A DNA stretch of 64,000 nucleotides from an uncultured Planctomycetia bacterium (GTDB taxonomy: Bacteria > Omnitrophota > Gorgyraeia > Tantalellales > Tantalellaceae). The stretch spans positions 21,015 through 85,014 of the forward strand of contig CAYPCX010000004.1 in assembly GCA_964409365.1 (NCBI GenBank), in the 5' to 3' direction. The notes under the pieces were generated by a model, which was not told where the DNA came from, did not search any database, and saw only the letters and a program-made list of their open reading frames with translations. Positions 11,515-54,630 of this stretch are shown here, one piece after another (position 1 is the stretch's first letter; each line of letters opens with the position of its first letter). Made by a program: the position numbers and the translations under genes.

Positions 11515-11730
11515 ATACGTAACCAGTTCCCAGTAACCAGTTCCCAGTAACCAGTAACCAGTAACCAGTAACAAGGAAAAAGGAAAAAGGAAAAAGTATC
11601 AAGTGTTGAGTTGTGAGTTGTTAGTCATGAGTTGTACGACTCAATACTAAGAACTAAAAGCTAACAACTAATATCTTCCAGGCATCTACGTTCTTCTGTC
11701 CTCTGTCTTCTGACCTCTGTTTTCTGACAC
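11515..11730. repeat. Composite heptad-array element: (CCAGTAA/CCAGTTC)n-(AGGAAAA)3-120-bp core (IR-L 11596..11715)-(NNCTGNN)5
   Basis: 7-nt periodicity throughout; core is the reverse complement of 18411..18530 (about 94% identity by eye). Confidence 0.85.
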
Positions 11731-11791
11731 CTGCGACCTTTCATCCCCCTCAAGTTGTATCTGGAATAGCAAGCCAGTATACTTACAAGAG

Positions 11792-12547
11792 ATGAAAGGG
11801 CCTTATTTGCTGGTGATCGGTTTTGTGGCGGGGTTTGCGAGCGGCGCGTTCGGGATTGGCGGGGGAGTGGTCATGGTCCCGGCGCTGGTACTCATCTGCA
11901 GGTATGAGATCAAGAAAGCCATTGGTATATCCCTGGCGACGATAGTTCCCACTGCCCTTGTGGGGGCCCTCACGCATTACCTGATATGTAGCAGTAATAT
12001 CGAATTCCCGGTGGTCCTTCTGGTCTCTCCCGGCGCTATTGCCGGCGCCTGGGTCGGGGCCAGGCTGGGGAACAGGCTCAGCAGCAGGCTGCTGTCCGGG
12101 CTGTTCGCCCTGTTTCTGACGTTCGTGGGCCTGAAACTCATGGGTATAGTTAGATTACCGATCAGTGTGCTCTCGAGTACGGCTGTCCACCCCGGGCTGG
12201 TCCTCCTTGGTCTGGCCGCCGGGGTTTGCTCGGCCCTGTTAGGGATAGGAGGAGGCGTCGTGATGGTGCCCTTTCTGAACCTTTTGTTCGGCCTTGGGAT
12301 ACACGAGGCCATAGCGACATCGCTCACGATCGTCGTGCCGACCACTTTTGCCGGGGCCGTGTTCCATAGGAGGCTGAATAACCTGGATGCCGGGCCCTTG
12401 AAATACCTGGTGCCGGCCGCTTTTCTTGGGGTCATCCTGGGAGCCGTTACGGCCAATTGTCTGTCGCAAGAGGTTTTAAAGGTCGCTTTCGGGGTCCTCA
12501 TGGTCCTGTGTTCTGTTAAGCTTTTTCTTGAAAAAAAACACCTTTGA
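11792..12547 (+). CDS. TauE/SafE (DUF81) sulfite/anion exporter family membrane protein
   Basis: two internal repeats each with GxGGGxxxxP motif (FGIGGGVVMVPAL; GIGGGVVMVPFL). Confidence 0.85.
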   Translation: MKGPYLLVIGFVAGFASGAFGIGGGVVMVPALVLICRYEIKKAIGISLATIVPTALVGALTHYLICSSNIEFPVVLLVSPGAIAGAWVGARLGNRLSSRLLSGLFALFLTFVGLKLMGIVRLPISVLSSTAVHPGLVLLGLAAGVCSALLGIGGGVVMVPFLNLLFGLGIHEAIATSLTIVVPTTFAGAVFHRRLNNLDAGPLKYLVPAAFLGVILGAVTANCLSQEVLKVAFGVLMVLCSVKLFLEKKHL

Positions 12548-12573
12548 TTATACAATCTATCGCATGTAGCGGA

Positions 12574-12649
12574 GCCAGCGTAGCTCAGTTGGCAGAGCAA
12601 GGCATTCGTAATGCCTAGGTCGGTGGTTCGAATCCACTCGCTGGCTCCA
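12574..12649 (+). tRNA. tRNA-Thr (CGT)
   Basis: cloverleaf; anticodon loop ATTCGTAAT; closely resembles E. coli tRNA-Thr(CGU); CCA encoded. Confidence 0.85.
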
Positions 12650-12668
12650 CAGTTTTACCATTCCTGAC

Positions 12669-13928
12669 ATGGCTCGTTTTCGAGACGTCCTTTTTAAAAG
12701 GAACTTCTTTTCCCTGTGGTCCGGCCAGATCATATCCGAATTCGGTGACCGTTTGAACCAGATGGCATTGATCTCGCTTGTCTATTCAAAAAGCCCCGGA
12801 TCCGTCATGGCCATGGCCAATCTGCTTTTTTTCATCGTTATACCCGTGTTCGTCATAGGGCCGGTGGCGGGCGTGTATGTCGACAGATGGGACCGCAAAA
12901 GGGTCATGATCATATCCGATATAATCAGGGGACTCCTGGTGCTGGCCGTACCGGTCTTTGTGCGTCTTGACCTGATGTGGCCGGTGTACATAATAGTATT
13001 CCTTATCTTTTCGGCCACGAGATTTTTTCTTCCCTCCAAACTGGCGTTGATCCCGACGATAGTGGCAAAGGATGATCTGGTCGTGGCCAATTCGCTTTCC
13101 AACACCACCCGCATGATCGCCACCATTCTCGGTTTTGCCCTGGCCGGGTTCATAGTAAAGTGGATAGGGTACATGTGGGGTTTTTATCTGGACAGCATGA
13201 GTTATTTTATTTCGGCCGGTTTTATAGCGATCATTACCCCGAAAAGGAAACTCGTCAACGTGCGGGAAGAGATCCAGATGACGGGAGAGATAATATCAAG
13301 ATCCATCAGAAGGAACGTATGGGGCGAGATAGTCGAGGGGATCGGTCATATGATGGGAAAAAGCAAGATGAGGGTGGTTACCAGCTCCTTGTTCCTTTTG
13401 ATGGCCGGCGCCGGATCGATCTTCTGTATCATCATAGTCTTTATCCAGCAGGCGTTCGGGTCTATAACCGAGGATCTGGGTCTTCTCGGGGTGTTCCTTG
13501 GCGCGGGGCTTTTCCTGGGTACCATCGTTTACGGAAAGTATGGCCAGAAGATGTCGAAGATACGCGCGATATTCGTCTGTTTCGGCCTTAGCGGCGTTGC
13601 GATCTCGCTTTTCGCGCTTTATTCAAGCAGGGACCCTGTTTTTCTGGTAGGAGGGCTCTTGATCATGCTTGTCGGGGCGGCGGTCGCCCCCATATTGACC
13701 TGCACCAACGTTTTGATACATACCCTTGTACCCGACGAGGTAAGGGGACGCATATTCAGCTCGATGGAGGCGGTCATGCACCTTGCGTTTATCGTGTTCA
13801 TGTTCATGACGGCGTATCTTTCCAAGCACGTGTCAAACCTGACGATATTACTGGCCAGCGGAACGATGTTCATAATAATCGGTTTTACGGGACAGGCCTT
13901 TTTCTCGGGGGGAAGGGCCGGAGGCTAA
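12669..13928 (+). CDS. MFS transporter (12 TM)
   Basis: hydrophobicity pattern and MFS-type loop motif VDRWDRKRVM between TM2 and TM3. Confidence 0.8.
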   Translation: MARFRDVLFKRNFFSLWSGQIISEFGDRLNQMALISLVYSKSPGSVMAMANLLFFIVIPVFVIGPVAGVYVDRWDRKRVMIISDIIRGLLVLAVPVFVRLDLMWPVYIIVFLIFSATRFFLPSKLALIPTIVAKDDLVVANSLSNTTRMIATILGFALAGFIVKWIGYMWGFYLDSMSYFISAGFIAIITPKRKLVNVREEIQMTGEIISRSIRRNVWGEIVEGIGHMMGKSKMRVVTSSLFLLMAGAGSIFCIIIVFIQQAFGSITEDLGLLGVFLGAGLFLGTIVYGKYGQKMSKIRAIFVCFGLSGVAISLFALYSSRDPVFLVGGLLIMLVGAAVAPILTCTNVLIHTLVPDEVRGRIFSSMEAVMHLAFIVFMFMTAYLSKHVSNLTILLASGTMFIIIGFTGQAFFSGGRAGG

Positions 13929-14116
13929 GATCTGGCCACTTTCTGGCTTTTCTTTTTCAGCGGGCTGGGTGACGGCGACCAGCAAGAGTCATAGAAAGTG
14001 CAAAGAGAACAACAGATGTTCTCCTTGTTATGCTCGCCCCGGTACCATTTGGTCTCACAGGTCCAGTAATATTGGCATTTTTCGCAGCAGTTCAGCTTTT
14101 TACGTCTTCCGGCCAT
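13925..14116 (-). CDS. Hypothetical small cysteine-rich protein (63 aa, 8 Cys, 3 Trp)
   Basis: ORF only; weak RBS; CCEKCQYYWTCETKW...ICCSLCTFYDSC. Confidence 0.2.
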   Translation of the reverse strand: MAGRRKKLNCCEKCQYYWTCETKWYRGEHNKENICCSLCTFYDSCWSPSPSPLKKKSQKVARS

Positions 14117-14206
14117 GGTGGTTTAGTGAGGTAATGATCTAAGCGGTAATATTAAATATCGTGAATTAATTATATAACGAATATGCGTGTATTTCAATAA
14201 AAATAC

Positions 14207-14241
14207 CCCGACACCCGATACCTGAGGCCCGGCACCTGATG
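14207..14241. repeat. (CCYGANN)x5 heptad array immediately upstream of rnf promoter
   Basis: cccgaca cccgata cctgagg cccggca cctgatg. Confidence 0.8.
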
Positions 14242-14244
14242 TGA

Positions 14245-14272
14245 TTGACAAACCCATTCCAATATGTATAAT
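14245..14272 (+). promoter_or_regulatory. sigma70-like promoter TTGACA-16-TATAAT (TG-extended) for rnf operon
   Basis: consensus hexamers read in sequence, about 40 nt before rnfC ATG. Confidence 0.55.
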
Positions 14273-18368: not shown

Positions 18369-18410
18369 TCCGTTGCGTGAGGATCGAGAGTTTAGATGTC
18401 AGGTCTTAGG

Positions 18411-18572
18411 GGTCAGAAGACAGAGGACAGAAGGACGTAGATGTCTGGAGGATATTAGTTGTTAGCTTTTAGTTCTTAGTTTTTAGTCGTACAACTCATG
18501 ACTAACAACTTACAACTCAACACTTGATACTGGTAACTGGTAACTGGTAACTGGTAACTGGTAACTGGTAAC
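18411..18572. repeat. IR-R core (18411..18530, reverse complement of 11596..11715) followed by (CTGGTAA)x6
   Basis: manual reverse-complement comparison; few mismatches. Confidence 0.85.
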
Positions 18573-18591: not shown

Positions 18592-19401
18592 ATGGATAAT
18601 CTGATGATAACGGCGATATTGAGCATGGCGGGACTGGCGATAGCGTTCGCGGCGGTCCTTGCGTTCGCCAACACGAAATTAAGGGTAGAGGAAGACCCGA
18701 GGGTGGACGTCATCAACCATCTTCTACCAGGGATCAATTGCGGCGCGTGCGGGTACCTCAGCTGCCACGACCTTGCGGAGCACGTGGTAAGGGAGGGGGA
18801 GGATCCCGCGAAATGCCGTGTAGTGGACGAGGAGACCAGGGAAAAACTTCTTGAGCTGACGGGCAGAGAGGGCGAAACGACTTATCCCTACATACCGCTT
18901 GTGCGGTGCGCGGCCGAATGGGAGCACAAGAAGAAAGAAGGAGTGGAGTATAAAGGCATCAAAACGTGCGCGGCGGCTAACCTCGCCTTCGGCGGGGGCA
19001 TGGACTGTGAATACGGCTGCATGGGGTTCGGCGACTGTGCCGAAGTATGTCCTTTCGACGCGCTCCATATGGAAAATGGCCTTCCCCGGCTCGACCAGGA
19101 GAAATGCACCGGTTGCGGAAAATGCGTCGAGGCATGCCCGCGCAACATCATAGTCCTTCAGGAGAAAAGGTTCGAGAAATTGTTTTACGTCGCTTGCAGC
19201 ACGCATGACGGGGCCTTAAGGGTCAGAGAGATCTGCAAGGTCGGCTGTATAGCCTGCGGGATATGCGAGAAACTTTCCCAGGAAGGGTTTTTCAAGGTAA
19301 CGGACAACCTCTCAAGGGCGGATTACTCCAAACAGGCCGACCCCGAAAAGGTAAGGCCCATAGCCGCCAAATGTCCGACGAAGGTGATAAAGGAAATTTA
19401 G
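18592..19401 (+). CDS. rnfB: Rnf complex subunit B (polyferredoxin)
   Basis: N-terminal TM; CGACGYLSC cluster; CTGCGKCVEACP and additional 4Fe-4S motifs. Confidence 0.85.
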   Translation: MDNLMITAILSMAGLAIAFAAVLAFANTKLRVEEDPRVDVINHLLPGINCGACGYLSCHDLAEHVVREGEDPAKCRVVDEETREKLLELTGREGETTYPYIPLVRCAAEWEHKKKEGVEYKGIKTCAAANLAFGGGMDCEYGCMGFGDCAEVCPFDALHMENGLPRLDQEKCTGCGKCVEACPRNIIVLQEKRFEKLFYVACSTHDGALRVREICKVGCIACGICEKLSQEGFFKVTDNLSRADYSKQADPEKVRPIAAKCPTKVIKEI

Positions 19402-19437
19402 GAAACAGGTGGCAGGAAACAGGTAACAGGGAAAACA

Positions 19438-23344: not shown

Positions 23345-26300
23345 ATGAATAATTACTTTAACATACATAGATTGTGGTTCAAAACAGTTGCGACAGGCGT
23401 AGTATGCCTGTTCCTTCTGAATAATTTCTCCTTCGCGCTGGAACCGACCACGGGTCAAAGATCCTGTCATACCCTTTCTCCGCAGTCACGATTCCCATTC
23501 GTGATCAAAGATAGAGTAAATGAAACGGAACTCACGCAGAGGCTCCAGAATGACGCGGGGCTGATATACGTGAGCCTGCTGATAGGAAAGGTCCTGGCTG
23601 CCAACGGTAGCGTGATCAGCGACAGAGGCTTAAGAACGCTGATCGAAAGACACATTCTGCATATAGAACCTGTAAGTTTTGATTGGGAAAACCTCAGGAA
23701 AGAAGGGAAGACCTTTTGTCTTCCTTATACCGAAAAGGGCGGCAACCGGACAAGGATCCTTCGTTATTATTTACCGGAGGATAAACCTGAAGAGGCAATA
23801 GGGAAACGGTCCATACCTCTCGGAACGGGAAATGCCAGGGTTATTTTAGAGGATACCCGGGTAGACGTATCGGAATCTGTGTTTATTTTTAACGTTGGCA
23901 CCGATGATATAAAGGGAGGAACAGGAAGAGAACTGTACGAGACAAATAGAATAGCTCAGGGAATTTATGATAGAGCGGCAGAGGCCCTGGGGTGCGATGT
24001 TTCCATGTTGTTTTTAGAGGAAAAGAACAGGGGTATAACCGAACGGTGGGCTGTCGGCAACATTTTGTATGGGGTAGCCCTGTATGCGGCATTTTCCGGC
24101 AGAATGGAGACGAATGATGCTCCGATCGCGCTGGCCGGTAACAGTATGGGTGAGATAGGAGCCCTTATCGTGAGCGGCGCCGTGTCTTTGGAGGACGGTG
24201 TCAGGCTTGCCCGGTTTTGTGGACATTTTTTTGAGACGGTCGTAGATAAGGTCGATTATGGCGTCGTCATACTGGAAGGCATTGAGAGTGATGCTATCAA
24301 GGGTTTTCTTGATCCCGGAAAGGTCGAGCTGTTCCAGGATGTTTCTCCCAGCAGCATTTCCCTGGCTGTAAGCAGGGATGTCGACCATGAAGAACTGGTC
24401 AACCGGTTAAAAGAGGCCGGAGCGAGAAGAGCGCAATATTTCGAAAAGCCTTTGGTCAAAGGGTCTCATGTAAGCTGGTACAGTCGTTATGGGCAGGGCC
24501 TTGTAGATCAGATCAGGGAAATGAAGATAAGCGATCCGGAGATCCCCGTTATCTCGCCCGCGACAGGGGAGATCCTCACGACCGCTGACCAGGTAAGGGA
24601 AGATATCCAGACGCAGTTTTTTAGGCCGATCGCATGGCGCGGTGTGGTAGATAAGGCCGTGGAAAGCGGCGCAAGATCGATGCTGGCCTTCGGGCCGGGA
24701 TGGCGGATCATAAAAAGAACAGAATCGATGGGTTCCGGTATTGAGATTATCCCGGCGACGGATCTTGCGGAGCTTGAATCCTTGAAACATAAGGTCAGGG
24801 GGTTCGGTTCCGAGAATTTAAGGCCGGATATCGGTACTGTGGTGAAAGGGCAGGATGGGCATACTTATGAAATCAAAGAGATAATAACGACCGGGGGAAC
24901 AGCCATTATTTTCGGGGCCAGGGATATGGAAACGAGCAAGAACGTCGCGATAAAATTCCTGGATTTTTCTATTGTGCCGGAACCGGAAGAATTTATAAAG
25001 CTGTTCAAACGGGAAGTGGATGTTTTGAAAAAAGGGTTCACGTTCGCGCCTGGTTTTTATGACTGGAATATCGTCGATGATCCCAAAGGTTATGGTTGGA
25101 TAGCTATGGAAAAGCTCGAAGGCGTTGAATTGTGGAAATGGGCAGCGGATAAATATCAGGATCAGACGATAGGTGTGCAGGAGAAGGTGAGAGATATAGT
25201 AGAAATAGTGCAGAAAGTCCTCAACCATATGAGTGCCTTATATGAAAACGGCATTCAGTATCGCGAAGTGAACCGGAAAAATATTATCGTTACTCCGGAG
25301 AGCGAACCGAAGCTAGTAGATTTCGTCGGCGCGTGCGTTCCCGGGCATGACCCAATACCATTGAATAAACTTCCGTGCACCCCGAACTATTTACCGCCTG
25401 ATAGACACCGTGAAATAAAACTCAAAGGTCCGGGGGTCCTTGACGATGTGACAACTCCGCAGTACGACGTTTTTCAGATGGGCGTGTTGCTGTTCCACCT
25501 GGCTCGCATGACAGGCCCACCTGATGACGGTTCTTATTGGGATGTCTCATTCACATACGAGACATATACCCGGGAAAAGATCGAAGATATGTTGCCGCCT
25601 GCTTGGAAAAGGTTTGCCGGTGTTATTTTTAAAGCCACCGCTCGGGAGCTTGAAGACCGCTACGAGAGCGCGGAAGAAATGAAACGCGCCATTGAGGAGC
25701 AGGAAGATGCACCAGGTTCCGAAGGATTTGGTGATGGGACTCATGGCCCGGATTTCGGAAAATCAAACCGAAAAAAGTTCTGTTTAGTCGCAATGGGCGC
25801 GGTATCTCCCTGGGTGGTGCTGATTCTATTAGCTGGCATGGTCATATGTGATATGGTCTACGGCGTAATAAACCACGAAAGGTTCTACCAGGTGATCCTC
25901 AACAAACACCCGAAGCTTACCCTCGCGCTTAAAAACCTCTTCTACCGCCAGTACTTGCCTGATCTTATCTCAAAACCCCTCCAGAGGTGGGCTGTTTCAG
26001 CGCTGGGCCGTTTGATGGACAAGATAAAAGAATTCACCGATAAACTCCCGGGAATAAGATTTAGGGATCCAGTTGTTGTCATGGAGGCCGAACTTGCGGG
26101 GACGGGAGACAAAGTAATCAGTGACATCGGCTTCCAGGTGCCGATCGTATTCGAGATGTCCAAGTCCGGCAGAAAGGGCAGAGGAAGGGGATCCAATAAA
26201 AGAAGGAAACAGATGTCCAAACGGCCCCCGGCCGCAGAGGAGCCCAAACCATACGATGACCTGATCTCCTGCGCGGGATATGCTTTAAATAACCTGGTGA

Positions 26301-29300
26301 TCGTCAGGGAACAACCTGAGATGCTACAAGCGGCAAAAGATTTTTACGCTTATTTATCTGAAGCAGGGAAAGACATCTTGGACCAGTTGAATATAGATGA
26401 GAACAAACTACAGGATATAAGATCGATTTTGGAAGGAAGGGGTTTGTCTCCGGACATGGTCCGGTGTTTGAGGCAGGATGCGGAGATCATAACCGGCAGA
26501 ACGAAGGGTAAAGGTACGGTCAAAGCCTCCCCGAAAAGATTTTCGGACGATTATGAAATAGTCGAGGTCGCCGATGTAAAAACACTTGTTCCCGTTATTA
26601 TGTATGTTCAGGAAATGAAAGCGCGTGAAGTCACGGATGCGGAACTCTCATTATACGCGGTGACTGATGATGATTTGAGAAAAGGAGTTCGGATGCCGGA
26701 GAAATTACCGGCCGCAAAAGAGATGCTTTACAGGAAAGCGTTGAGAAACCTGAAAGATGTAAATTGGTACAAAAGGGGCTGGCAGGAAGTTCAGGGTTTA
26801 TCCCCGGCGAATAAACGTTTTCTGAAAGAAAAAGCGGAAGAGATATGCGGGGATAAACTTGAAAAGTGCTGGGGTTTTGTAGAAGGCATTTCAAGCGAGC
26901 AGGATTATGCCGAGAAACTAATGAGAACTGAGATTGCCACCGTGAACAGTATGCGTGATTTCACGGAGTTTATAATATTGTTGGCGTGTATTTACGGAGG
27001 CGAGCAGACGCATGATGAGATGCGCGTGGCCTTGGAAAATATAGAAAAAGAGCATGAAAATGCCGCCCTTCTCGGTGATGCGCCTGTTCTCGACAGACTT
27101 GACGAAGATGTATCGGTAAATGTAGGGACTTTCGCAAAGATCGCTTTTTCCTTTCTTGAACATGAAAAGGGCTTGGAAAGAGACAGTAAAGAGTACAGGG
27201 CGATACTGGATGCGGTACGGCGTATAAATTCCTCCGCTAAAGTGCAATGCCGGCCGGAATCGAGCGAGAGATGGATAAGGGACTTTTTGGCATGGATACA
27301 CGCGGGATTCAGGTATTATCTGATGCCGAAAGGCGGCGAGATATACGACGATCGGCATGGGCCGGGTGTGTTGCGTGAAGGCGGGGCCATTGTTCCGGGA
27401 AGGGCGGTAACACCCTTTACACTGGTATCCGGTGCCGTAAAAACTTCGGACGCCGAGCTTTTCTCCGCTGAGGCGGGGAAACTGGGAATATTTACTTATG
27501 TCCTTCCTCCCGGGTTTGTGACATGCCGGATATCTTCTACCGGAAGGAATATAATCCTTAAAACGGGGCACATTGATGTAGTCATGGGTGTTGTTCCGCC
27601 GGAGTTTACAAGCGATGGCAGAGCCAAACTCCTGATGGATCCGAGTTATCACAACCTGGTGAAAGACAACCCCGAATTTCTGCGTCTTTTGGAAGAACAG
27701 GGTTCTAATATGGATGTGGTCCTAATACATCCGGAAGAAACTTACCTTAACCTGGCCAATTTCAGCTCGCTCCTGGATGAAAATGGGCAGGTCAAACTGC
27801 TTTTTAATCACGACAAAGGCCTTACTTTGCCATATTTGAATTTGAAAACGGGTGTTCTTTTCCAGACGGATATGGAAATAACGGGAATGGCGGTTCTTAG
27901 GGGCCTGGTAAGGTGTATGACAAATATGCTTCCCGGGAGCTACGTAAAGGGAGGCGCCTCTACCAGCATCGTGATCCGTGATAGCGGTATGCCACCCGGT
28001 GTGGCGACAGGCCTTCATGCGTTAAGTAAGGACCCGGAACTGAAAAGGGTGTTGCAGGAGCTTTGGATAAATAGATTGACGATAACTGGGACTAAATTTC
28101 GTCCTATGTCCCTGGTCCATTATGATTCGTCAACCCGGAGGATTCTCGTCCAGTTGGGGAATGATCTTGTAAATGATCCCAGCGCCGCCTGCGATTATGT
28201 TATTAATTACTTAGAAGCAACCCGGCAGCGTCTGTGCCAGGATATGGGTATATCTGTCCAGGGGTTTGGTGATACCCGACAGATGGGTGGATCGGCCCCG
28301 GCTCCGGCCGGTATGTTCCCGTGGATGTGGCGCGTCTATGATCCGATAAAAAGAGGTCTTGAGAAGAGGGACTGGCCGGCGCGCCGGATCGCCGGTCTGA
28401 TAGGCGGCCTGGAAGAGCTGGGGATCGCGGGCCTGGTCATGAACGGGGCAGCTTTTGCGTTAAGTTATTTTTGCGGGATGCCTTTTATAACAGCTCTTCT
28501 GGTGACTTCAGCGGTCGCGGTGCCGTTTTTTCCGGCAGGACATATTAGAGGACGGTATTATATTCAAGGAGGGGGATTTGCCCCCGCTTTGCCTTCTAAT
28601 TTCTGGAAGGATATGGGCGTCCTTACAGTTCTTGGACTTACGACAAGATCCCTGCAGCTATTGCCTGTCGCAATGGTATGCGTGTTTAACCTTAATCCTG
28701 CCTTTACGCTGGTCGGCATCCCGCTTGCCGTTATCGCGCATGCTTATTATAACCATTCCGTAGCGCCCGAACGCAACCGCCCTCTCGGCATGCCATGGAA
28801 AGGTAAACCCCACAAGTGGACGCCGGAACGTATATCTGAAGAGCTTCGCATGATGTATTTTGACGGAGTGGATTCAAGAGGTGTGAAGTGCACACGTGAA
28901 GACCTTCGGATCGAAAAAATAAGAGACCATTATCAGGGTCTTGCTGTTGCGGTCCCGAGGACTTGGAAGGAAATGCTGAAGGAACAGGGAGTATCAGAGA
29001 ACAGCCGCCTTTATATTTACATGTCCGGGGAAGGCAGAAATCCCAGGGAAGGTATTAATAAGGCAGGATGGGAGTATTTCTGGGCGACGATCGGAGTGAA
29101 TTACGAAAGAGATATTGAAAAGAAACCGGGTGCTGCAGAAGGGGCTTATATACCGAACGCGACCGATAGCGGCATAGAACACCGTGATTTGAAAAAGTTC
29201 GTTCCGGAAGAAGATGAGCTGTTCGGTATTGTCAGGGAAATGTTGGGCGGGGAAGATCTCACTGAACACGAGATAGCTGATATCATCCTCAACGCGCCCG

Positions 29301-32038
29301 ATGATGTTATTTCAGATGATCAGAGATTCATTTTAAGGGAATATTGCGGACTTAACAAGAGCGGCGTAGCAACGATGGTAAAAGATATCGCTGAGGAAAT
29401 GGGCATCTCCACGACCGCCGTGATCGATTCGAGGAAGAGAGCTTGTGAGAAGATCTATAACTGGCTTAAAGCCCAGCAGAGAACGGAAGGGGCGGAAAGG
29501 CAGGATCTGATCTTGCGGGACGAACCGGATCTTTATTACAGATTACAGGAAATGGGCATTAATACTGTCATCGAGCTTTCGGATCTTACGGAGAACGAGT
29601 TCGCGGAACAGCCGGGAATAAATTCCTGGCACGTTTCTGTTGCTAAGCAAAAGCTTGTTGAAGCTGGCCTGGGAGGATTCCGTTCGCCGTCGTTAGGGAG
29701 GAGCGCCCCTATAGAAAACTTGAGTCTGGCTGTGGAAAACCCGGAAAGGGTTCATGCGCTTTTGAGGAAAAAAGGCGTAAACACCGTTGCGGTGCTTTTG
29801 AAGATCGGGGTAGGGGGGCTTGCGGATAGGCTGGGAAAAGAGGCGTCACGACATATCATTGCCATAAGAAGGGCGGTAGCGCCGCATGGTTGGGAATTAA
29901 GGTTCCCCGCTGCAGTGAGTAACAACGATCCCATAGAATGTCTGCCTTTTCCCGCTTGGCACGAGTACGATACTTGTCAAAGGCTCAGGGAGGTCAATAT
30001 CAAGACTATCGGCCAGCTTCGGGACAAGACCCGAATAGAGCTAAAAAGGGTCGAGGGTATAGGGCAGGCGCGGCTGGAGATCATCACGAGAACTCTTGCT
30101 TATTATGACAAAGAATTAAGGGTTGACAGCGCGTTGAAGGAAGAGGATTCGATAAGAAAGCTTTGGATCTCTGCTTTTAAATCAGAAAATGTTTATAGCG
30201 CCCTTGAAGGGGCTGGTATTATTACTATCGGCCAGCTTTTAGATAAGACAAGAAAGGATCTCTTGCGGATCCCCAAGATCGGCGAACGTGCCGTTGCCGC
30301 TATTGAGGAAAAACTGGCTGTCTACGGCTGGAGATTACGTCAGGAGAGCACGATCGATGGTGTTCCTGCCGATATTCCGGCCGGAAGTATCGAAAACGTG
30401 CTCAGCTATTTTTGTGATCAAGACATAACCGATCCTGGGAAAGCCCTTACGCTGGAGCAGGCAGCAGATCGTTTGGGGCTTTCACCCTGGACAATAGAGC
30501 CGGACATAAGGGCGTTGAGCCTGCACCTGGATCTTTTGGAGGTCGTTCCTCCGGGTGGGACGGGTAAAAAGAAGAGGTATTACGTCCCGGAAAGCGTGAA
30601 GAAGAAACTCGATAGGATACTCCCGGTCCTATCCCAATTCCGCGGTGAGAATCTCCGCCCGAAAGTCGCACTTCTCGATGAAGTCTACGAAAAAGAAATA
30701 TTCCCGATTCTTGCCCCGGAAAAAAGTATTAAGCTTGAGATGATAAGACCGTCACCGGAATTGGAAAACAGAATTGAAAAATTCAGAGGAGTCGTGAAAA
30801 AACTTACCGATGACATACAAGGATCTTATGACGAAGAGCGGGGAACTTATTCATCAAAAGAATACGAAGCCGTGATAGCTGCCTTCGTGAATAGCCATAA
30901 GCCGTCCAGCATAGGCTACTACCATCCTTCTCCTTCATGGGCTATTCCTATTTTTCTCGAACATTTAGGGATAAACGAAAGTGATATAATGCTGGAAGCG
31001 GGAAGCGGAAAAGCTATTGTATCTTTTGAGGCCGCTTGTTTGTTCGGCGCTCGCGCGACGGCGGTGGAATATAGCGAAGCCTTCCACGTGTACGCCGGAC
31101 TGATACAAAAGGGGTTAATAAAAGAGGGTGTGCTGGAAGACAAACATGTGACTTTGTTCAATAAAGATTTTCTGGAGATGGATTTCTCTGAATACTCGCT
31201 GATCTATTACCAGTCACAAGGGACGCGCAAGAAGGAAGAACTGCTTAAGAAGATGTTGCAGATCAAACCGGGTGGCAGGATATTGATCTACGCGGGATAT
31301 GAACCCGAGATAGAGGACGAACTCAATGCGAATCCGGAGTTCGAAGCGAAGAAACTACAGATCGAAGGGCACCCCGGTGCTTTAGAGATGAGGGTCTATA
31401 CCAGGGTCGCCCGAGCGGATGAGGATGAGAAGCCGGTGGTCGATATTGCCAGCGAGGACAAGATCGCTCAGGATTTCATAGATGCGGTTATTCTGACGAT
31501 CGACGCGCTGGGAAGAAGATCCGGCAGGCAGAACAAGAAGATGATGATCGGTATTGACACAAGCTGGATACCGGAAGAGCAGCGGCATTCATCCGCGATG
31601 GTGCAGACCCTACTGGCGGCGATAAAAGATGCGCTTAGGGAGATAGGGCGGGAGGACATCGTTTTACTGGATGATAGTGACCCGGAGGGGTTAGCAGAGC
31701 AGCTCCGGACGGAAAGCGGGAAGACGGGAGTACCGCTTTCAAATATCGCGATAGTAAGTGCCGAAAAGACGTTCGAAGGAACGGACATTTTCGAGGAATT
31801 CAAGGGCGAGAGCAGGGAACAGGGCGCGTTTTTTGCGAAGGTGCCGCTGCCGGAAAAAGGACTTTCAAAGGATCTTGACATCAATATCGTCAAGATGTTG
31901 ACGATATTGATGAAGCATATATCCGACCCGGACAGCCCCCGCGAATTCTATTTGCCGATACCAGACGCGAAAGAGGTAGGGATAGACAAGCTCGGGGATG
32001 TTCATAAAGCCCGCGCCGAGGCGTTGATCAGGGCGTAA
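23345..32038 (+). CDS. Giant multidomain membrane protein (2,897 aa): N-terminal signal/anchor, FabD-like acyltransferase, degenerate protein-kinase-like domain, several TM blocks, sigma-70 region-4-like HTH (x2), four RNAP alpha-CTD-like HhH repeats, class I SAM methyltransferase
   Basis: single uninterrupted ORF; domain motifs identified by eye (see findings). Confidence 0.8.
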   Translation: MNNYFNIHRLWFKTVATGVVCLFLLNNFSFALEPTTGQRSCHTLSPQSRFPFVIKDRVNETELTQRLQNDAGLIYVSLLIGKVLAANGSVISDRGLRTLIERHILHIEPVSFDWENLRKEGKTFCLPYTEKGGNRTRILRYYLPEDKPEEAIGKRSIPLGTGNARVILEDTRVDVSESVFIFNVGTDDIKGGTGRELYETNRIAQGIYDRAAEALGCDVSMLFLEEKNRGITERWAVGNILYGVALYAAFSGRMETNDAPIALAGNSMGEIGALIVSGAVSLEDGVRLARFCGHFFETVVDKVDYGVVILEGIESDAIKGFLDPGKVELFQDVSPSSISLAVSRDVDHEELVNRLKEAGARRAQYFEKPLVKGSHVSWYSRYGQGLVDQIREMKISDPEIPVISPATGEILTTADQVREDIQTQFFRPIAWRGVVDKAVESGARSMLAFGPGWRIIKRTESMGSGIEIIPATDLAELESLKHKVRGFGSENLRPDIGTVVKGQDGHTYEIKEIITTGGTAIIFGARDMETSKNVAIKFLDFSIVPEPEEFIKLFKREVDVLKKGFTFAPGFYDWNIVDDPKGYGWIAMEKLEGVELWKWAADKYQDQTIGVQEKVRDIVEIVQKVLNHMSALYENGIQYREVNRKNIIVTPESEPKLVDFVGACVPGHDPIPLNKLPCTPNYLPPDRHREIKLKGPGVLDDVTTPQYDVFQMGVLLFHLARMTGPPDDGSYWDVSFTYETYTREKIEDMLPPAWKRFAGVIFKATARELEDRYESAEEMKRAIEEQEDAPGSEGFGDGTHGPDFGKSNRKKFCLVAMGAVSPWVVLILLAGMVICDMVYGVINHERFYQVILNKHPKLTLALKNLFYRQYLPDLISKPLQRWAVSALGRLMDKIKEFTDKLPGIRFRDPVVVMEAELAGTGDKVISDIGFQVPIVFEMSKSGRKGRGRGSNKRRKQMSKRPPAAEEPKPYDDLISCAGYALNNLVIVREQPEMLQAAKDFYAYLSEAGKDILDQLNIDENKLQDIRSILEGRGLSPDMVRCLRQDAEIITGRTKGKGTVKASPKRFSDDYEIVEVADVKTLVPVIMYVQEMKAREVTDAELSLYAVTDDDLRKGVRMPEKLPAAKEMLYRKALRNLKDVNWYKRGWQEVQGLSPANKRFLKEKAEEICGDKLEKCWGFVEGISSEQDYAEKLMRTEIATVNSMRDFTEFIILLACIYGGEQTHDEMRVALENIEKEHENAALLGDAPVLDRLDEDVSVNVGTFAKIAFSFLEHEKGLERDSKEYRAILDAVRRINSSAKVQCRPESSERWIRDFLAWIHAGFRYYLMPKGGEIYDDRHGPGVLREGGAIVPGRAVTPFTLVSGAVKTSDAELFSAEAGKLGIFTYVLPPGFVTCRISSTGRNIILKTGHIDVVMGVVPPEFTSDGRAKLLMDPSYHNLVKDNPEFLRLLEEQGSNMDVVLIHPEETYLNLANFSSLLDENGQVKLLFNHDKGLTLPYLNLKTGVLFQTDMEITGMAVLRGLVRCMTNMLPGSYVKGGASTSIVIRDSGMPPGVATGLHALSKDPELKRVLQELWINRLTITGTKFRPMSLVHYDSSTRRILVQLGNDLVNDPSAACDYVINYLEATRQRLCQDMGISVQGFGDTRQMGGSAPAPAGMFPWMWRVYDPIKRGLEKRDWPARRIAGLIGGLEELGIAGLVMNGAAFALSYFCGMPFITALLVTSAVAVPFFPAGHIRGRYYIQGGGFAPALPSNFWKDMGVLTVLGLTTRSLQLLPVAMVCVFNLNPAFTLVGIPLAVIAHAYYNHSVAPERNRPLGMPWKGKPHKWTPERISEELRMMYFDGVDSRGVKCTREDLRIEKIRDHYQGLAVAVPRTWKEMLKEQGVSENSRLYIYMSGEGRNPREGINKAGWEYFWATIGVNYERDIEKKPGAAEGAYIPNATDSGIEHRDLKKFVPEEDELFGIVREMLGGEDLTEHEIADIILNAPDDVISDDQRFILREYCGLNKSGVATMVKDIAEEMGISTTAVIDSRKRACEKIYNWLKAQQRTEGAERQDLILRDEPDLYYRLQEMGINTVIELSDLTENEFAEQPGINSWHVSVAKQKLVEAGLGGFRSPSLGRSAPIENLSLAVENPERVHALLRKKGVNTVAVLLKIGVGGLADRLGKEASRHIIAIRRAVAPHGWELRFPAAVSNNDPIECLPFPAWHEYDTCQRLREVNIKTIGQLRDKTRIELKRVEGIGQARLEIITRTLAYYDKELRVDSALKEEDSIRKLWISAFKSENVYSALEGAGIITIGQLLDKTRKDLLRIPKIGERAVAAIEEKLAVYGWRLRQESTIDGVPADIPAGSIENVLSYFCDQDITDPGKALTLEQAADRLGLSPWTIEPDIRALSLHLDLLEVVPPGGTGKKKRYYVPESVKKKLDRILPVLSQFRGENLRPKVALLDEVYEKEIFPILAPEKSIKLEMIRPSPELENRIEKFRGVVKKLTDDIQGSYDEERGTYSSKEYEAVIAAFVNSHKPSSIGYYHPSPSWAIPIFLEHLGINESDIMLEAGSGKAIVSFEAACLFGARATAVEYSEAFHVYAGLIQKGLIKEGVLEDKHVTLFNKDFLEMDFSEYSLIYYQSQGTRKKEELLKKMLQIKPGGRILIYAGYEPEIEDELNANPEFEAKKLQIEGHPGALEMRVYTRVARADEDEKPVVDIASEDKIAQDFIDAVILTIDALGRRSGRQNKKMMIGIDTSWIPEEQRHSSAMVQTLLAAIKDALREIGREDIVLLDDSDPEGLAEQLRTESGKTGVPLSNIAIVSAEKTFEGTDIFEEFKGESREQGAFFAKVPLPEKGLSKDLDINIVKMLTILMKHISDPDSPREFYLPIPDAKEVGIDKLGDVHKARAEALIRA

Positions 32039-32040: not shown

Positions 32041-32077
32041 CAGGTCTCAGGTCACAGGTTTCAGGTAGCAGGTCACA
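32041..32077. repeat. (CAGGTNN)x5 heptad array just after giant ORF stop
   Basis: caggtct caggtca caggttt caggtag caggtca. Confidence 0.8.
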
Positions 32078-32142
32078 CAGCATAAAACCCTTGCGCATGA
32101 GTTCTATATTTGCTATAATTTGACACTCTGAACGAGATTTGA

Positions 32143-32217: not shown

Positions 32218-32221
32218 ATAT

Positions 32222-32253: not shown

Positions 32254-32262
32254 TTACCCCGG

Positions 32263-32300: not shown

Positions 32301-32301
32301 A

Positions 32302-34698: not shown

Positions 34699-34733
34699 CT
34701 CAATACTCGACACTCAATACTTGATACTTGATA
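34698..34733. repeat. (CTYRANA)x5 heptad array between purM and purD
   Basis: ctcaata ctcgaca ctcaata cttgata cttgata. Confidence 0.8.
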
Positions 34734-37482: not shown

Positions 37483-37545
37483 GCAGAAGGCAGAGGACAG
37501 ATTGTTCATTTCTTTTATCTGTTTTCTGACTTCTGATTTCTGAAA
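37483..37545. repeat. Forward (CAGANGG)x3 and reverse-complement (TCTGNNN)x4 heptad arrays forming imperfect long hairpin between rpiB and glyA
   Basis: read in sequence. Confidence 0.7.
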
Positions 37546-38831: not shown

Positions 38832-38910
38832 AGAAGGATAAAGGATAAGGGAAAAAGGGTGAAGGGTAAAGGAAAAAGGATAAAGGAACAAAGAAAAAGG
38901 GAAAGAATAA
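38832..38910. repeat. (AAGGNNA)x11 heptad array spanning glyA-stop to dCMP-deaminase N-terminus
   Basis: aaggata aaggata agggaaa aagggtg aagggta aaggaaa ... Confidence 0.8.
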
Positions 38911-39353
38911 ACAGGCCGAGCTGGGATGATTATTTCATGAATATAGCCCGGCTTGTCGCGACACGATCGACCTGCCTGCGCAGACAGGTAGGCGCTGTTG
39001 TCGTCAAGGATAAGCAGATATTGGCCACCGGGTACAACGGCGCTCCTTCGGGGCTGACCCACTGCGACCAGGTCGGGTGCCTCAGGGAAGAGCTCGGGAT
39101 CCCTTCGGGCCAGCGGCACGAGCTTTGCCGCGCCTTGCACGCGGAGCAGAACGCCTTTTTGCAGGCGGCCAGGCACGGCGCCAGTCTTGCCGGCGGTACG
39201 CTGTACATAACGACGCAGCCCTGCAGTATCTGCGCGAAGATGCTGATAAATGTCGGCATAAAAAAGATCGTTATCGAGGGGGACTACCCCGATGACTTCG
39301 CCCTTCAATTCCTCAAGGAGTCCAAAATAGAAACGGTGGTGCTTGGGTCATGA
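38859..39353 (+). CDS. Deoxycytidylate (dCMP) deaminase, ComEB-type; start uncertain (GTG 38859 inside heptad array)
   Basis: RPSWDDYFM...RSTC N-terminus, HAEQNA and PCSICA zinc-binding motifs. Confidence 0.8.
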
Positions 39354-52116: not shown

Positions 52117-52139
52117 GCCGAATCCTTGCCCGCCAGCCA
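52117..52139 (+). repeat. 23-nt direct repeat of tRNA-Gln 3' end (att-like)
   Basis: cgaatccttgcccgccagccagc identical to 51896..51918(+gc). Confidence 0.8.
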
Positions 52140-52306
52140 GCAAATTGCGCTGTGCGCAATTTGCAGAGTATTCGAGATTCGAAAGTCGACAGTCGGAGAG
52201 AATAGAGAATCAAGAATACGGTCGAATTTCGATTATCGATTTCTCGGGAAACAATATCAAAGAACACAACAGAGCTTTTCGGCAGGTTCGATTCTAGAGA
52301 GGCATT

Positions 52307-53563
52307 ATGGAGAACATGACAGTTGTAATACTCGCGGCTGGATTGGGTACCAGGATGAAGACGGATATCCCCAAGGCGCTTCATCCGCTGTCGTCCGGGA
52401 CTATTATGGGAAAAATAGTCTCGAACCTGAAAAATGCCGGCGCGACCGACATGGTCGCGGTCGTAGGTTACAAGGCGGATCAGGTGGAAGAACGTTTCAA
52501 GGGAGAAATGAGGTTCGTCAGGCAGAAAGAGCTCCTCGGCAGCGGCGACGCTCTTGCGGCCGCCCTTAAATCCGTGCCTGAAGACAGGGGAGATGTCCTC
52601 GTCACGTGCGGGGATACACCGCTGATAACGGATACCACGTACAAGTTCCTTGTGAAGTCTCACCTGGGCGAGGAAGCGTCGTGCACTCTTTTGACCTGCA
52701 GGACGAGCGATCCTTATTCATACGGCAGGATAGTGAGAGATGATAGCGGCAAGGTGCTTAAGATAGTCGAGGAAAAGGACGCCTCCGAGGATGAAAAGAA
52801 GATCACGGAGATCAACGTCGGCACTTATTGTTTCCGCGTGTCCGATCTGAAAGAGTATATCCGTGGAATAGAGATGAACCAGAAGAAGAAAGAGTTCTAT
52901 CTCACGGATATCGTGGATATCCTTACTAAAAATGGGAAAAGGATAGTTACGCACAGCTGTGACCCGGAGGAAGCCATCGGGGTGAACTCGAGGAAAGACC
53001 TGGCCGAGGCCAACAAAGCGGTGAACAGACGGACGCTGGAAAAACTCATGGATTCCGGCGTGACCATCATGGATCCGGAGACCACTTACATAGACGATTC
53101 CGTTGCGATCGGGAAGGACACGGTCATATTCCCGTGCACGGTCATAGAAAATGACGTGGTAATAGCCGGCAGGTGCAAGATAGGCCCTTTTGCGCGCCTC
53201 AGGCCCGGCACGAAATTGTCCGAAGGCGTGGAAGTGGGCAATTACGCGGAACTCTGCCGGACAGAGGTCGGCAAGAACACGAAAATAAAGCACCAGTCAT
53301 ACCTGGGCGATACGGTGGTCGGCTCGGGCGTGAACATAGGGGCCGGGGTCATTACGGCCAATTATGACGGGAAGAATAAACACCGCACGGTGATCGAAGA
53401 TGCCGCTTTCATCGGGGTAGGCGTGATGCTGGTCGCCCCCGTGAAGATAGGAAAAGGCGCTGTTGTCGGGGCGGGCAGTGTCGTTACCAAGAATAAGGAC
53501 GTTCCCCCGGGAGTGACGGTCATAGGGATACCGGCGAGACCCCTTGTTTCCAGCAAAAAATAA
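52307..53563 (+). CDS. glmU: Bifunctional UDP-GlcNAc pyrophosphorylase / GlcN-1-P acetyltransferase
   Basis: VVILAAGLGTRMK nucleotidyltransferase motif + C-terminal left-handed beta-helix hexapeptide repeats. Confidence 0.85.
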   Translation: MENMTVVILAAGLGTRMKTDIPKALHPLSSGTIMGKIVSNLKNAGATDMVAVVGYKADQVEERFKGEMRFVRQKELLGSGDALAAALKSVPEDRGDVLVTCGDTPLITDTTYKFLVKSHLGEEASCTLLTCRTSDPYSYGRIVRDDSGKVLKIVEEKDASEDEKKITEINVGTYCFRVSDLKEYIRGIEMNQKKKEFYLTDIVDILTKNGKRIVTHSCDPEEAIGVNSRKDLAEANKAVNRRTLEKLMDSGVTIMDPETTYIDDSVAIGKDTVIFPCTVIENDVVIAGRCKIGPFARLRPGTKLSEGVEVGNYAELCRTEVGKNTKIKHQSYLGDTVVGSGVNIGAGVITANYDGKNKHRTVIEDAAFIGVGVMLVAPVKIGKGAVVGAGSVVTKNKDVPPGVTVIGIPARPLVSSKK

Positions 53564-53574
53564 GGAGATGTGCC

Positions 53575-54510
53575 ATGGATAAACTGACGATTTTCAGCGG
53601 GAACGCCAATCCCGCCCTGGCGAGGAAGATATGCGAGAACATGGGCGTGGAACCGGGAGATATAGAAGTGGCGAGGTTCCGCGACGGTGAAACGCGGGTC
53701 AAGATAAGAGAGAACGTCAGAGGCAAGGATGTGTTCGTGGTACAGTCTACGTGCTTTCCCGCGAACGAGAACCTGATGGAACTGCTGATAATGCTGGATG
53801 CCATAAAACGCGCTTCCGCGCAGAGGATAACGGCTGTCCTGCCTTATTTCGGGTACGCCCGGCAGGACCGCAAGGACCAGCCGAGAGTGCCGATAACGGC
53901 AAAACTCGTGGCTAACCTGTTGAGCAGGGCGGGAGCGAACAGGATATTGACCATAGACCTCCATGCCGGTCAGATACAGGGCTTCTTCGACATGCCCATG
54001 GACCATCTGTACGCCGTGAGCATATTTCAGCAATACTTCGAGCGGAAAAAATTGAAGGACATAGTGATCGTTTCTCCGGATGTAGGAGGCATAAAGATGG
54101 CCAGGGCCTATGCTAAAAGGTTCAGGGCGGGGCTGGCTATCGTGGATAAACGCCGGATAAACGACGAAGCCGCCGAGGTCATGCATATAATGGGCGACGT
54201 GGAAGGGAAGAACGTGCTTCTGGTGGATGATATGGTGGCTACGGCGGGGAGCCTCGTGGAGGCCACCGGCGCGCTAAAGAAAAACGGCGCGAGAGATATC
54301 TACGCCGCGATAACGCACCCGGTGCTGTGCGGTCCGGCCCTGGAAAGATTGGGATCTTCCCAGGTAAAGGAACTGGTCGTGACTGATACTATACCGATGG
54401 ACAAGGATAAGTTCCTGAAGAACATAAAACAGCTTTCGGTGGCGGAGCTTCTGGCGGAGGCTATAAGAAGGATACACAACGAGGAATCCATAAGCGCCTT
54501 GTTTGAATAA
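53575..54510 (+). CDS. prs: Ribose-phosphate pyrophosphokinase
   Basis: canonical PRPP synthetase motifs (DLHAGQIQGFFD, VLLVDDMVATAGS). Confidence 0.95.
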   Translation: MDKLTIFSGNANPALARKICENMGVEPGDIEVARFRDGETRVKIRENVRGKDVFVVQSTCFPANENLMELLIMLDAIKRASAQRITAVLPYFGYARQDRKDQPRVPITAKLVANLLSRAGANRILTIDLHAGQIQGFFDMPMDHLYAVSIFQQYFERKKLKDIVIVSPDVGGIKMARAYAKRFRAGLAIVDKRRINDEAAEVMHIMGDVEGKNVLLVDDMVATAGSLVEATGALKKNGARDIYAAITHPVLCGPALERLGSSQVKELVVTDTIPMDKDKFLKNIKQLSVAELLAEAIRRIHNEESISALFE

Positions 54511-54630
54511 CAGAAGACAGAGGACAGAGAACAGAAGACAGATAACAGAAAACAGATCATAGTATCTTTTAACATCAAACACCTAATATCTGACTTCTGA
54601 ATTCTGACATCTGACGTCTGATTTCTGAAA
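54511..54630. repeat. (CAGANNA)x6 and inverted (TCTGANN)x6 heptad arrays between prs and rplY
   Basis: read in sequence; arrays are mutual reverse complements. Confidence 0.85.

Follow-up and report, generated by a model that had tools for sequence, protein, structure and literature searches.

What are the tandem 7-nt units that recur between the genes of an uncultured Omnitrophota bacterium, and why is their period seven? The question is raised by a 64,000-nt stretch of DNA (NCBI GenBank assembly GCA_964409365.1, contig CAYPCX010000004.1, positions 21,015 to 85,014 of the forward strand), which was deposited as an uncultured Planctomycetia bacterium and is placed by GTDB in the family Tantalellaceae of the Omnitrophota. 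This whole stretch is called the window here, and positions are given in its coordinates. A first inspection of the letters and of a list of open reading frames (ORFs), made without database searches and referred to here as the sequence-only reading, likened the units to the short tandemly repeated repetitive (STRR) sequences of cyanobacteria. It was found that the arrays are real, are restricted to spacers, and frequently consist of two arms of opposite polarity that are able to pair as an imperfect hairpin; occasionally they have been copied as larger composite modules. They probably belong to the STRR-like class of heptanucleotide long simple sequence repeats (SSRs), remodelled by slippage and block duplication and often organized as hairpin pairs, which has bloomed in a branch of the Omnitrophota.

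Period-7 Arrays in Intergenic Spacers

The gene map of the window was curated from Pfam and NCBIfam matches, tRNA calls and conserved N-termini, and it leaves 24 spacers of 3,654 nt in total. In these spacers the self-match at lags 7, 14 and 21 is 0.375, 0.345 and 0.323, respectively, against 0.25-0.28 at other lags, whereas the lag-7 value in the rest of the window, which is coding DNA, is 0.241. Shuffled intergenic sequence was the yardstick that the sequence-only reading had named for the genome; in the window, 13 of the 24 spacers exceed their own shuffles at period 7 (P ≤ 0.024). At period 7, a lag-match scan of the window detected 12 strong arrays; period 9 gave one, and periods 4-6, 8 and 10-12 gave none. 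Tandem Repeats Finder (TRF) calls period-7 arrays at nearly all positions where the sequence-only reading had listed them: 1405-1436, 11519-11572, 11573-11596, 11607-11635, 11646-11671, 11692-11728, 18529-18572, 38834-38911, 54510-54556 and 54589-54628, as well as calls at 18414, 18455, 19400, 32041, 32264, 34717 and 37524. The window has about 18 arrays in its 64 kb, a density of 2.8 per 10 kb, and the heptad arrays span about 690 nt, or roughly 19% of the spacer DNA. Only the arrays at 1405 and 38834 touch called ORF starts. Thus, both properties that define the heptanucleotide long-SSR class, head-to-tail tandem 7-nt copies beyond chance and a strong non-coding bias, are present, and the likeness to STRR sequences confined to non-coding spacers is borne out by TRF, the period scan and the spacer tests. 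The arrays are less general than the sequence-only reading had stated. It had placed them in almost every spacer longer than 60 bp; such spacers do carry arrays, but the count is 9 of the 16 spacers of at least 60 nt. Its item at 41389 is not a heptamer but an 8-nt unit in 2.2 copies, which is not significant (shuffle P = 0.29).

The same arrays are found in other assemblies of the organism. A JGI contig (3300029267, Ga0310068_1000203) is 100% identical to the window across 12.5 kb, and two Logan assemblies from separate runs (SRR14699969 and SRR6963311) have the same array sequence; all three are identical wherever they overlap. Chance and assembly artefact are ruled out by the period scan, the spacer shuffles and these identical independent assemblies. 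Both Logan contigs start within an array: heptad arrays break short-read assemblies. The arrays also extend past the window in the same genome. The next divergent spacer downstream contains TCAGGTN in six copies (L087:7246-7285; analysed loci are denoted by L and three digits), so that, with this one included, one or two arrays lie in the 7.9 kb downstream; no array was found in the 8.6 kb upstream of the window.

At least eight heptad families occur in the window, most of them in both orientations on the + strand. CAGGTNN (1405, 32041) has the inverse ACCYGAN (14206, 32264), CAGANNN (18412, 37483, 54510) has TCTGANN (11690, 37516, 54588), CCAGTWA (11517) has ACTGGTA (18529), and TTAGTTN (18455) has ACTAAxA (11644); further families are TGAGTTG-like, CTYGATA, AAGGNNA and AGGNNNC. 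Three arrays are perfect (1405, 11573 and 18529), and several others vary at scattered positions. In seven arrays, the TRF match at period 14 or 21 is better than that at period 7, which indicates that they grew by duplicating blocks of two or three units. According to the sequence-only reading, the first 4-5 nt of a unit are fixed and the last 2-3 nt vary. This holds clearly for the arrays at 54510 (P = 2e-4), 54589 (P = 0.015), 32041 (P = 0.016) and 18455, and for the window arrays when pooled, but not for the three perfect arrays or those with scattered variation. A CAG/CTG core, which had been seen as common to many arrays, is present in about four of eight families against about 0.22 expected per family and is not clearly above chance. 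As a unifying motif it was rejected, since cores elsewhere are unrelated and CAGA/TCTG occurs in 9 of 33 loci.

How widespread is the period? Two control sets were used: 1.29 Mb around glyA in many phyla, with GlyA relatives of at most 65% identity, and 0.62 Mb around the genes for ribosomal protein L25 in metagenome contigs, drawn from among the matches listed and mostly from distant taxa, plus the loci L090 and L092. The glyA loci contain 17 period-7 arrays against 0-9 at any other period, and the L25 loci, among the matches listed, contain 50 against 0-12. The arrays are concentrated in particular genomes, for example L060 (a Chloroflexia metagenome-assembled genome), L092, L161 and L104, and their cores are diverse across loci, with no dominant 4-mer. 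The sequence-only reading had suggested a lineage-specific repeat-generating process. The dominance of period 7 in both sets of loci from many phyla, together with precedents in cyanobacteria, Xanthomonas, Beggiatoaceae and Geobacter, contradicts this (PMC4679880; PMC4692102; PMC2700814). The many unrelated families in the window and the diverse cores across loci point to a mechanism that is tied to the period and not to the sequence.

Inverted Pairs and a Duplicated Composite Module

The sequence-only reading overlooked two features, the inverted-pair architecture and the duplicated composite module. Several arrays are inverted pairs with 12-30 nt between the arms. The pair in the rpiB-glyA spacer (37483-37543) folds with -27.9 kcal/mol and a z-score of -4.96 on the + strand and -3.96 on the - strand, and the pair in the prs-ctc spacer (54510-54629) has z = -3.4 and -3.8. 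Both strands fold well, as an inverted repeat at the DNA level should. When neighbouring related arrays within 200 nt were counted in 2.0 Mb of pooled loci, 24 were inverted and none was direct; this excess makes the hairpin pair, and not the single array, a common unit of the repeat class. Across pairs from the pooled loci, the arms are complementary in 83% of conserved columns versus 58% of variable columns. At one extreme, the pairs are near-perfect palindromes (L060:12455, L115, L122); at the other (L092, L150, the window, L090), complementarity in the variable columns is at chance level. L115 and L122 have similar hairpins, each just downstream of the L25 gene, with one compensatory change. 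Terminators were considered as a role for the hairpins and rejected, since no U-tract follows them.

The composite module is about 180 nt long, comprises four to five arrays and is present twice in opposite orientation, at 11554-11732 and 18394-18572. The copies are 84% complementary over 179 nt, with a core of about 95% identity. They differ in the terminal unit, which is CCAGTAA in one and CCAGTTA in the other, and by an extra AAGGAAA block of three copies in one. The rnfCDGEAB operon holds one of the copies, in its rnfA-rnfB spacer. The central part of the left copy folds with z = -2.9; the whole 220-nt composite was rejected as a single structured RNA (z = +0.3). Neither the two composite copies nor the paired arrays show a visible target-site duplication. 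A 20-mer taken from the composite core has no exact match among 185,579 species genomes. An Rfam scan of the window returned only four tRNAs at gathering thresholds, and a permissive search of 10700-11800 gave nothing credible. The left composite is flanked by a 32-nt direct repeat of 84% identity, beginning CCCCCTCAAGTTGT, at 11295-11326 and 11745-11776. Immediately ahead of the TauE-family gene, the downstream copy of this repeat overlaps a promoter-like TTGTAT-17-TATACT. Between the two composite modules lie 6.6 kb with the TauE gene, tRNA-Thr, an MFS gene and rnfCDGEA.

Arrays in Orthologous Spacers of Relatives

All named L25 and RnfB homologues are from Candidatus Omnitrophota, and the records contain neither an L25 relative of more than 72% identity nor an RnfB relative of more than 78%. 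Comparison with related genomes, a check that the sequence-only reading had proposed, gave a divided picture: L175, L090, L174 and L092 carry arrays, but L176, L171 and L082 do not. L175, the closest syntenic relative (RnfB 78%), has 5.5 arrays per 10 kb versus 2.8 in the window. They lie upstream of rnfC and in the rnfE-rnfA, rnfA-rnfB and rnfB-purN spacers, and they are mostly inverted pairs of heptads unlike those of the window. The rnfC promoter and the purN ribosome-binding region align well between the two genomes, while the array upstream of rnfC differs. The rnfB-purN spacer measures 35 nt in the window, about 5 nt in L176 and 109 nt in L175, where it holds paired TAGGTNT/AAACCTA arrays. 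In L176 (RnfB 72%), the gene order is identical, spacers are 5-27 nt and there is no array; L171 and L082 are likewise syntenic, compact and array-free. Near the arrays of L175, purN is called as two fragments of 72 and 116 aa (L175:7751-8304), and a frameshift or an assembly error is possible there.

The prs-ctc spacer likewise shows turnover at a fixed place. It has ACAGANN x7 / TCTGANN x6 in the window, CAGANNN x6 / YCTGANN x4 in L090 (L25 66%), CAGGAGN x5 / ACTCYGA x3 in L174 (L25 72%), and AAGCGNN x4 / NNCGCTT x4 in L092 (L25 55%), where the AAGCG family also fills the glmU-prs spacer. L170 (L25 72%) has one GTCAG/CTGAC palindrome only, and in L171, L082 and L091 the spacer is 13-32 nt with nothing in it. 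In every occupied case the arms match each other, and the core is uniform within a genome and drifts between genomes. The pattern is the signature of concerted evolution of the tandem units with maintained arm complementarity. Related cores are also kept in other orthologous spacers: CCTG upstream of rnfC and AGGT in rnfB-purN, besides CAGA or CAGG in prs-ctc. The nearest relative retains arrays in the same spacers, whereas the sequence and the copy number of the heptads turn over. The best-supported account of this distribution is that some Omnitrophota lineages have undergone a bloom of arrays, which streamlined sister lineages lack.

Comparison with Known Repeat Systems

Heptanucleotide repeats have been known since 1990 (Mazel, 1990, as cited in PMC4679880 and PMC4692102). 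According to the same two papers, they are the most abundant long-SSR class in prokaryotes, and polymerase slippage has been proposed for them (Mrazek et al., 2007). As these papers summarize them, cyanobacterial STRR sequences and heptanucleotide long SSRs share with the window arrays the tandem 7-nt unit, the non-coding bias, the presence of several unit families per genome and some inverted pairs; they occupy many loci per genome, and here about 18 arrays are found in one 64-kb window (Mazel, 1990; Mrazek et al., 2007). The arrays of the window are shorter (3-11 copies) and more degenerate than cyanobacterial STRR sequences, and the host belongs to the Omnitrophota. None of the cyanobacterial units CCCCAGT, TTGGTCA, CAACAGT and GGGGAYT occurs in the window, so that the arrays are not STRR sequences sensu stricto.

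Compared by published consensus, the closest match is the class 3 global regulator binding sites of Geobacter metallireducens, which consist of five tandem heptads of consensus MTYCTGA in pairs on opposite strands (Aklujkar et al., 2009; PMC2700814). Eight pairs form one BLAST family there, and they lie in intergenic spacers including the intra-operon proB-proA spacer (PMC2700814). MTYCTGA coincides with the arms at 54588-54629 and 37516-37543 (NTCTGAN / TTTCTGA), each of which is paired with an inverse CAGA arm. The former reads ATCTGAC, TTCTGAA, TTCTGAC, ATCTGAC, GTCTGAT, TTCTGAA, and the latter TATCTGT, TTTCTGA, CTTCTGA, TTTCTGA. About five MTYCTGA heptads and intergenic pairs on opposite strands (54510/54588 and 37483/37516) are thus found in both systems. 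However, Geobacter belongs to another phylum, CAGA/TCTGA is just one of the families in the window, and the IHF/HU binding that was proposed in G. metallireducens is without support in the window.

TAACTGA repeats of marine Beggiatoaceae, cyanobacteria and Bacteroidetes are present in 2-6 copies right upstream of start codons, including those of ribosomal-protein genes (MacGregor, 2015; PMC4679880). The window arrays resemble those of Beggiatoaceae in being short, upstream of start codons and CTGA-like in their cores. One dominant heptamer, almost always direct and in one orientation, characterizes the TAACTGA repeats, whereas the families of the window are many, run in both orientations and are commonly arranged as inverted pairs. 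In Xanthomonas, GGGAATC repeats lie between the same genes across species with varying length and sequence (Rehm et al., 2015; PMC4692102). They too are intergenic heptamers with some inverted pairs, and they are mostly transcribed. They are G-rich and form G-quadruplexes, whereas the window units are not G-tract repeats.

Resemblances to three other kinds of element are partial. Repetitive extragenic palindromic (REP) sequences and bacterial interspersed mosaic elements (BIMEs) are built on an imperfect palindrome of 20-40 nt with a conserved GTAG-type tetranucleotide, are linked to REP-associated tyrosine transposases (RAYTs) and have no internal 7-nt periodicity. The window arrays are like those of enterobacteria in being intercistronic, hairpin-forming, genome-specific, often inverted pairs and patchy among relatives. 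However, their arms have no shared terminal tetranucleotide, and of the annotated genes none is RAYT-like. In inc18 plasmids, the omega repressor binds contiguous 7-bp WATCACW heptads, direct and inverted, with one ribbon-helix-helix dimer per heptad. It is an established case of a protein that reads a 7-bp period, and its operators share with the window arrays contiguous 7-bp units that run in direct and inverted orientation beside promoters. The omega heptad is a different one, set in a plasmid partition and copy-control context without a gap between the orientations; no window array has a WATCACW unit, and no omega-like gene was identified. As for miniature inverted-repeat transposable elements, inverted arms are present and one module is seen twice within the window, though target-site duplications are not visible.

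In the literature searched, no description of heptad arrays in Candidatus Omnitrophota was found. The window is a well-resolved case of a known heptanucleotide class in this phylum of uncultured bacteria, and what it adds is the inverted pair as a common unit, the persistence at orthologous spacers with sequence turnover, and the syntenic array-rich and array-free sisters. The contrast between array-rich (L175, L092) and array-free (L176, L171, L082) sisters allows phylogenetic profiling of genes for repair, polymerases and nucleic-acid-binding proteins.

Origin and Possible Function of the Arrays

How could such arrays have arisen? A slippage and block-duplication origin is favoured because of the perfect arrays, the higher-order periods, the differences between the composite copies, the heptad turnover at fixed spacers and the many unrelated families. 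In this scheme, replication slippage and the duplication of 7-, 14- and 21-nt blocks would create and remodel the arrays, selection for pairing, or else template switching from arm to arm, would keep the arms complementary, and whole modules would sometimes be duplicated into new spacers. Since most arrays are in co-directional spacers inside apparent operons, they would be transcribed. In the weakest step of the scheme, transcribed pairs might form intercistronic stem-loops with a REP/BIME-type effect on mRNA stability, processing or translational coupling. Many arrays may be neutral passengers.

Several observations weigh against this explanation. No copy-number variation is seen among the three assemblies of the organism. 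Slippage alone leaves the sharp preference for period 7 unexplained, and a three-frame stop barrier would not explain it either, because a stop-containing unit would cover all frames at every period that is not a multiple of 3. Arrays have stayed in the same spacers over deep divergence, which is unusual for useless bacterial DNA. In 11 of the 13 pairs beside genes of known orientation, the purine-rich arm comes first in the sense direction (P = 0.022), which suggests a strand-specific constraint. An RNA-specific hairpin was sought through G-U asymmetry, but sense and antisense folds show no consistent energy difference, the sense fold being more stable in only 9 of 13 pairs, and do not tell an RNA role from a DNA role. 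Finally, differences between units of the pooled window arrays concentrate in two adjacent columns (Fisher P = 0.014 with hand-set and P = 0.002 with scan-set boundaries). Neutral decay of slipped copies does not predict such confined variation, which hints at a constraint on a 5-nt core. In 82 arrays from other loci, the concentration is absent (Fisher P = 0.92), and a fixed core with a variable tail was therefore rejected as a general rule of the class.

Could the arrays be read by a protein? They may be platforms for an oligomerizing nucleic-acid-binding protein that recognizes the 4-5-nt core every 7 nt, those near promoters and start codons being regulatory, although we regard this as unlikely. 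The omega repressor would be the DNA analogue, and HutP or cold-shock-domain proteins the RNA analogues. HutP reads NAG-N4 repeats, and cold-shock-domain proteins have footprints of 6-7 nt. The column-confined variation of several window arrays and the purine-arm-first orientation speak for a platform. So do the older pairs (L092, L150, the window, L090), which keep their cores while tails drop to chance complementarity, the CAGA/TCTGA cores in the orthologous prs-ctc spacer of L090 despite an L25 identity of only 66%, and the three ACCYGAN arrays placed just upstream of TTGACA boxes. Similar speculation has been published for Beggiatoaceae, Nostoc and G. metallireducens (PMC4679880; bioRxiv 10.1101/2022.06.06.494920; PMC2700814); the Nostoc heptamer experiments are only suggestive (bioRxiv 10.1101/2022.06.06.494920). 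However, the unrelated families within 64 kb would need several binders, cores across genomes have no dominant motif, column-confined variation is missing outside the window, syntenic relatives manage without arrays in the same operons, and no candidate binder was identified. A related idea, quite unlikely in our estimation, is that the paired arrays are functional cis-elements, in which a core every 7 nt on complementary arms would make a periodic hairpin or a protein-coating platform for a putative oligomeric factor present in many uncultured bacteria. If this were true, it would account for the period-7 preference, the retained cores, the purine-arm-first orientation and the persistence in the same spacers. 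The sequence-only reading had named as a possible binder the giant protein with helix-hairpin-helix (HhH) repeats encoded at 23345-32038, to which we assign almost no probability. This protein has 2,897 aa, with an acyltransferase-like region (residues 192-363), a protein-kinase domain (508-724), internal 73-aa repeats and a segment like the HhH of the RNA polymerase alpha C-terminal domain (alpha-CTD; 2283-2325). The last two features speak for the proposal, as does the array at 32041, which begins right after the stop codon of the giant ORF. Yet HhH domains contact the backbone or the minor groove with little sequence specificity, and to our knowledge neither they nor alpha-CTD-type domains read such heptad motifs. 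The proposal is left without support by the many unrelated cores, by comparable arrays being common in loci of other phyla, and by L176, which has no array and yet retains a syntenic giant ORF (3,704 aa on record, the first 2,061 aa in the locus) that is homologous at the N-terminus only (48% over 183 aa).

Mobility and switching are the other candidates. That paired arrays and the composite are miniature non-autonomous mobile elements, mobilized by a transposase encoded elsewhere, seems decidedly improbable, even though the arm-centre-arm layout of 65-125 nt is suggestive and the arms carry short motifs that are direct within and inverted between them, as in the subterminal repeats of some transposon ends. 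Also in favour of mobility, the two composite copies share a nearly identical core in unrelated flanks and opposite orientations, orthologous spacers are occupied patchily among relatives, and the TTAGT/ACTAA family is in different rnf spacers in the window and in L175. Against it, besides the missing target-site duplications, the composite has ends that do not form an inverted repeat, the relatedness of cores in orthologous spacers fits in-situ evolution better than repeated insertion, and no transposase was found among the approximately 30 annotated window genes, to which the scan was confined. We also know of no transposase-binding sites with a spacing as tight as 7 bp. Phase variation, in which a change in copy number would switch neighbouring genes, is plausible only for the array at 1405 and is very improbable for the arrays as a whole. 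There, a perfect CAGGTTA array of 4.6 copies lies in the called 5' end of ORF 1399-2511 in a polysaccharide cluster, where one unit shifts the frame, and heptanucleotide phase variation is documented elsewhere for NeuO and HMW1A (PMC13001214; PMC8262952). Of the other arrays, nearly all are next to housekeeping genes (rnf, pur, glyA, prs, L25), and their degeneracy suppresses slippage; array lengths do not differ among the assemblies.

Positions of the Arrays in the Window

Most arrays are in co-directional housekeeping spacers, namely rnfA-rnfB, rnfB-purN, purM-purD, rpiB-glyA, glyA-dcd and prs-ctc. They usually start at or beside the upstream stop codon and end 10-20 nt ahead of the ribosome-binding site, whereas others stop shortly before a -35 box. 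For example, three ACCYGAN arrays end 3-11 nt upstream of TTGACA boxes. In this respect, the sequence-only reading, which put the arrays after a stop codon or terminator and ahead of the promoter or ribosome-binding site that follows, was right. All arrays given below are read on the + strand unless stated otherwise.

The CAGGTTA array at 1405-1436 (4.6 copies, 100% matches by TRF) is at the junction of two overlapping genes, within called ORF 1399-2511. This ORF is GH42-like, belongs to a glycosyltransferase/polysaccharide cluster and has its exact 370-aa product on record. From its sequence, it is a possible candidate for a phase-variable gene. The left composite, with its outer repeats, covers 11517-11735 upstream of the TauE-family gene and has the order (CCAGTWM)x8, (AAGGAAA)x3, TGAGTTG-like x5, a GTAC dyad, ACTAAxA x4, a spacer and (TCTGNCC/TCTTCTG)x5. 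Upstream of rnfC, a degenerate ACCYGAN array of five copies (14206-14240), which the sequence-only reading had listed at 14207, is real but weak, being below the TRF threshold with a spacer shuffle P of 0.024. It ends 4 nt ahead of the -35 box of a promoter for rnfC that matches the sigma-70 consensus at 12 of 12 positions (14245-14272). The right composite (18394-18572) is inverted, on the - strand, between rnfA and rnfB; on the + strand it reads CAGARGA x3, TTAGTTN x5, ACAACTY x3 and ACTGGTA x6.3, the last at 18529-18572 with 100% matches. AGGNNNC x5 (19400-19434), detected by TRF and the spacer test, occupies the entire rnfB-purN spacer.

CAGGTNN x5 (32041-32075), called by TRF and with its variation in two columns, lies right after the stop codon of the giant ORF and upstream of tRNA-Met. 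Its inverse, ACCYGAN x5 (32264-32298), follows the terminator of tRNA-Met and stops 3 nt short of a TTGACA box that precedes purB. These two inverted arrays (32041-32298) flank the tRNA-Met gene (32143-32217), which has a terminator and a promoter-like region of its own, in a layout as if the gene were nested in the loop of a paired element. In the purM-purD spacer, CTCAATA / CTYGATA x5 (34699-34733), a cyclic rotation of the CTYRANA unit, resembles the TGAGTTG/CAACTCA part of the composite module. The rpiB-glyA pair (37483-37543) consists of GCAGARG x3, a 12-nt loop and TTTCTGA x4. The glyA-dCMP deaminase spacer has AAGGNNA x11 (38834-38911), called by TRF, with higher-order periodicity of 14, 21 and 28 nt. 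This array overlaps GTG 38859, the only in-frame start of the dCMP deaminase gene (ORF 38859-39353), and the overlap gives the enzyme a Lys/Arg/Gly-rich N-terminal extension as well as a run of Shine-Dalgarno-like AAGGA motifs. A weak AGAGAAT x3 array (52197-52218) is called by TRF in the 388-nt spacer upstream of glmU (spacer test P = 0.001). The prs-ctc pair (54510-54629), with ACAGANN x7, a centre of about 29 nt and TCTGANN x6, fills its spacer, beginning at the stop codon and ending about 20 nt ahead of the start codon.

Other Features of the Window

Three further observations concern neighbouring genes. The first 23 nt of the tRNA-Phe gene (10972-11047) are duplicated at 10777-10799 and followed by two copies of a 31-nt palindromic unit, TTCCCCGAACCCTTTYAGGGTTCGGGATAAA; judged by its sequence, the whole segment (10777-10880) looks like a small insertion or rearrangement beside the tRNA-Phe gene. 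Between the MFS gene and rnfC, the - strand has a small Cys-rich ORF (13925-14116) with a length of about 63 aa, and L175 and L176 have a 64-aa minus-strand gene at the same position. In the gene for ribosomal protein S18 (ORF 56762-57076), a 9-nt repeat, GGCGACAGG, is present in 3.9 copies at 57038-57072 and encodes a C-terminal (GDR)x4 tail; S18 has 92 aa in relatives versus 101-104 aa in the window genome.

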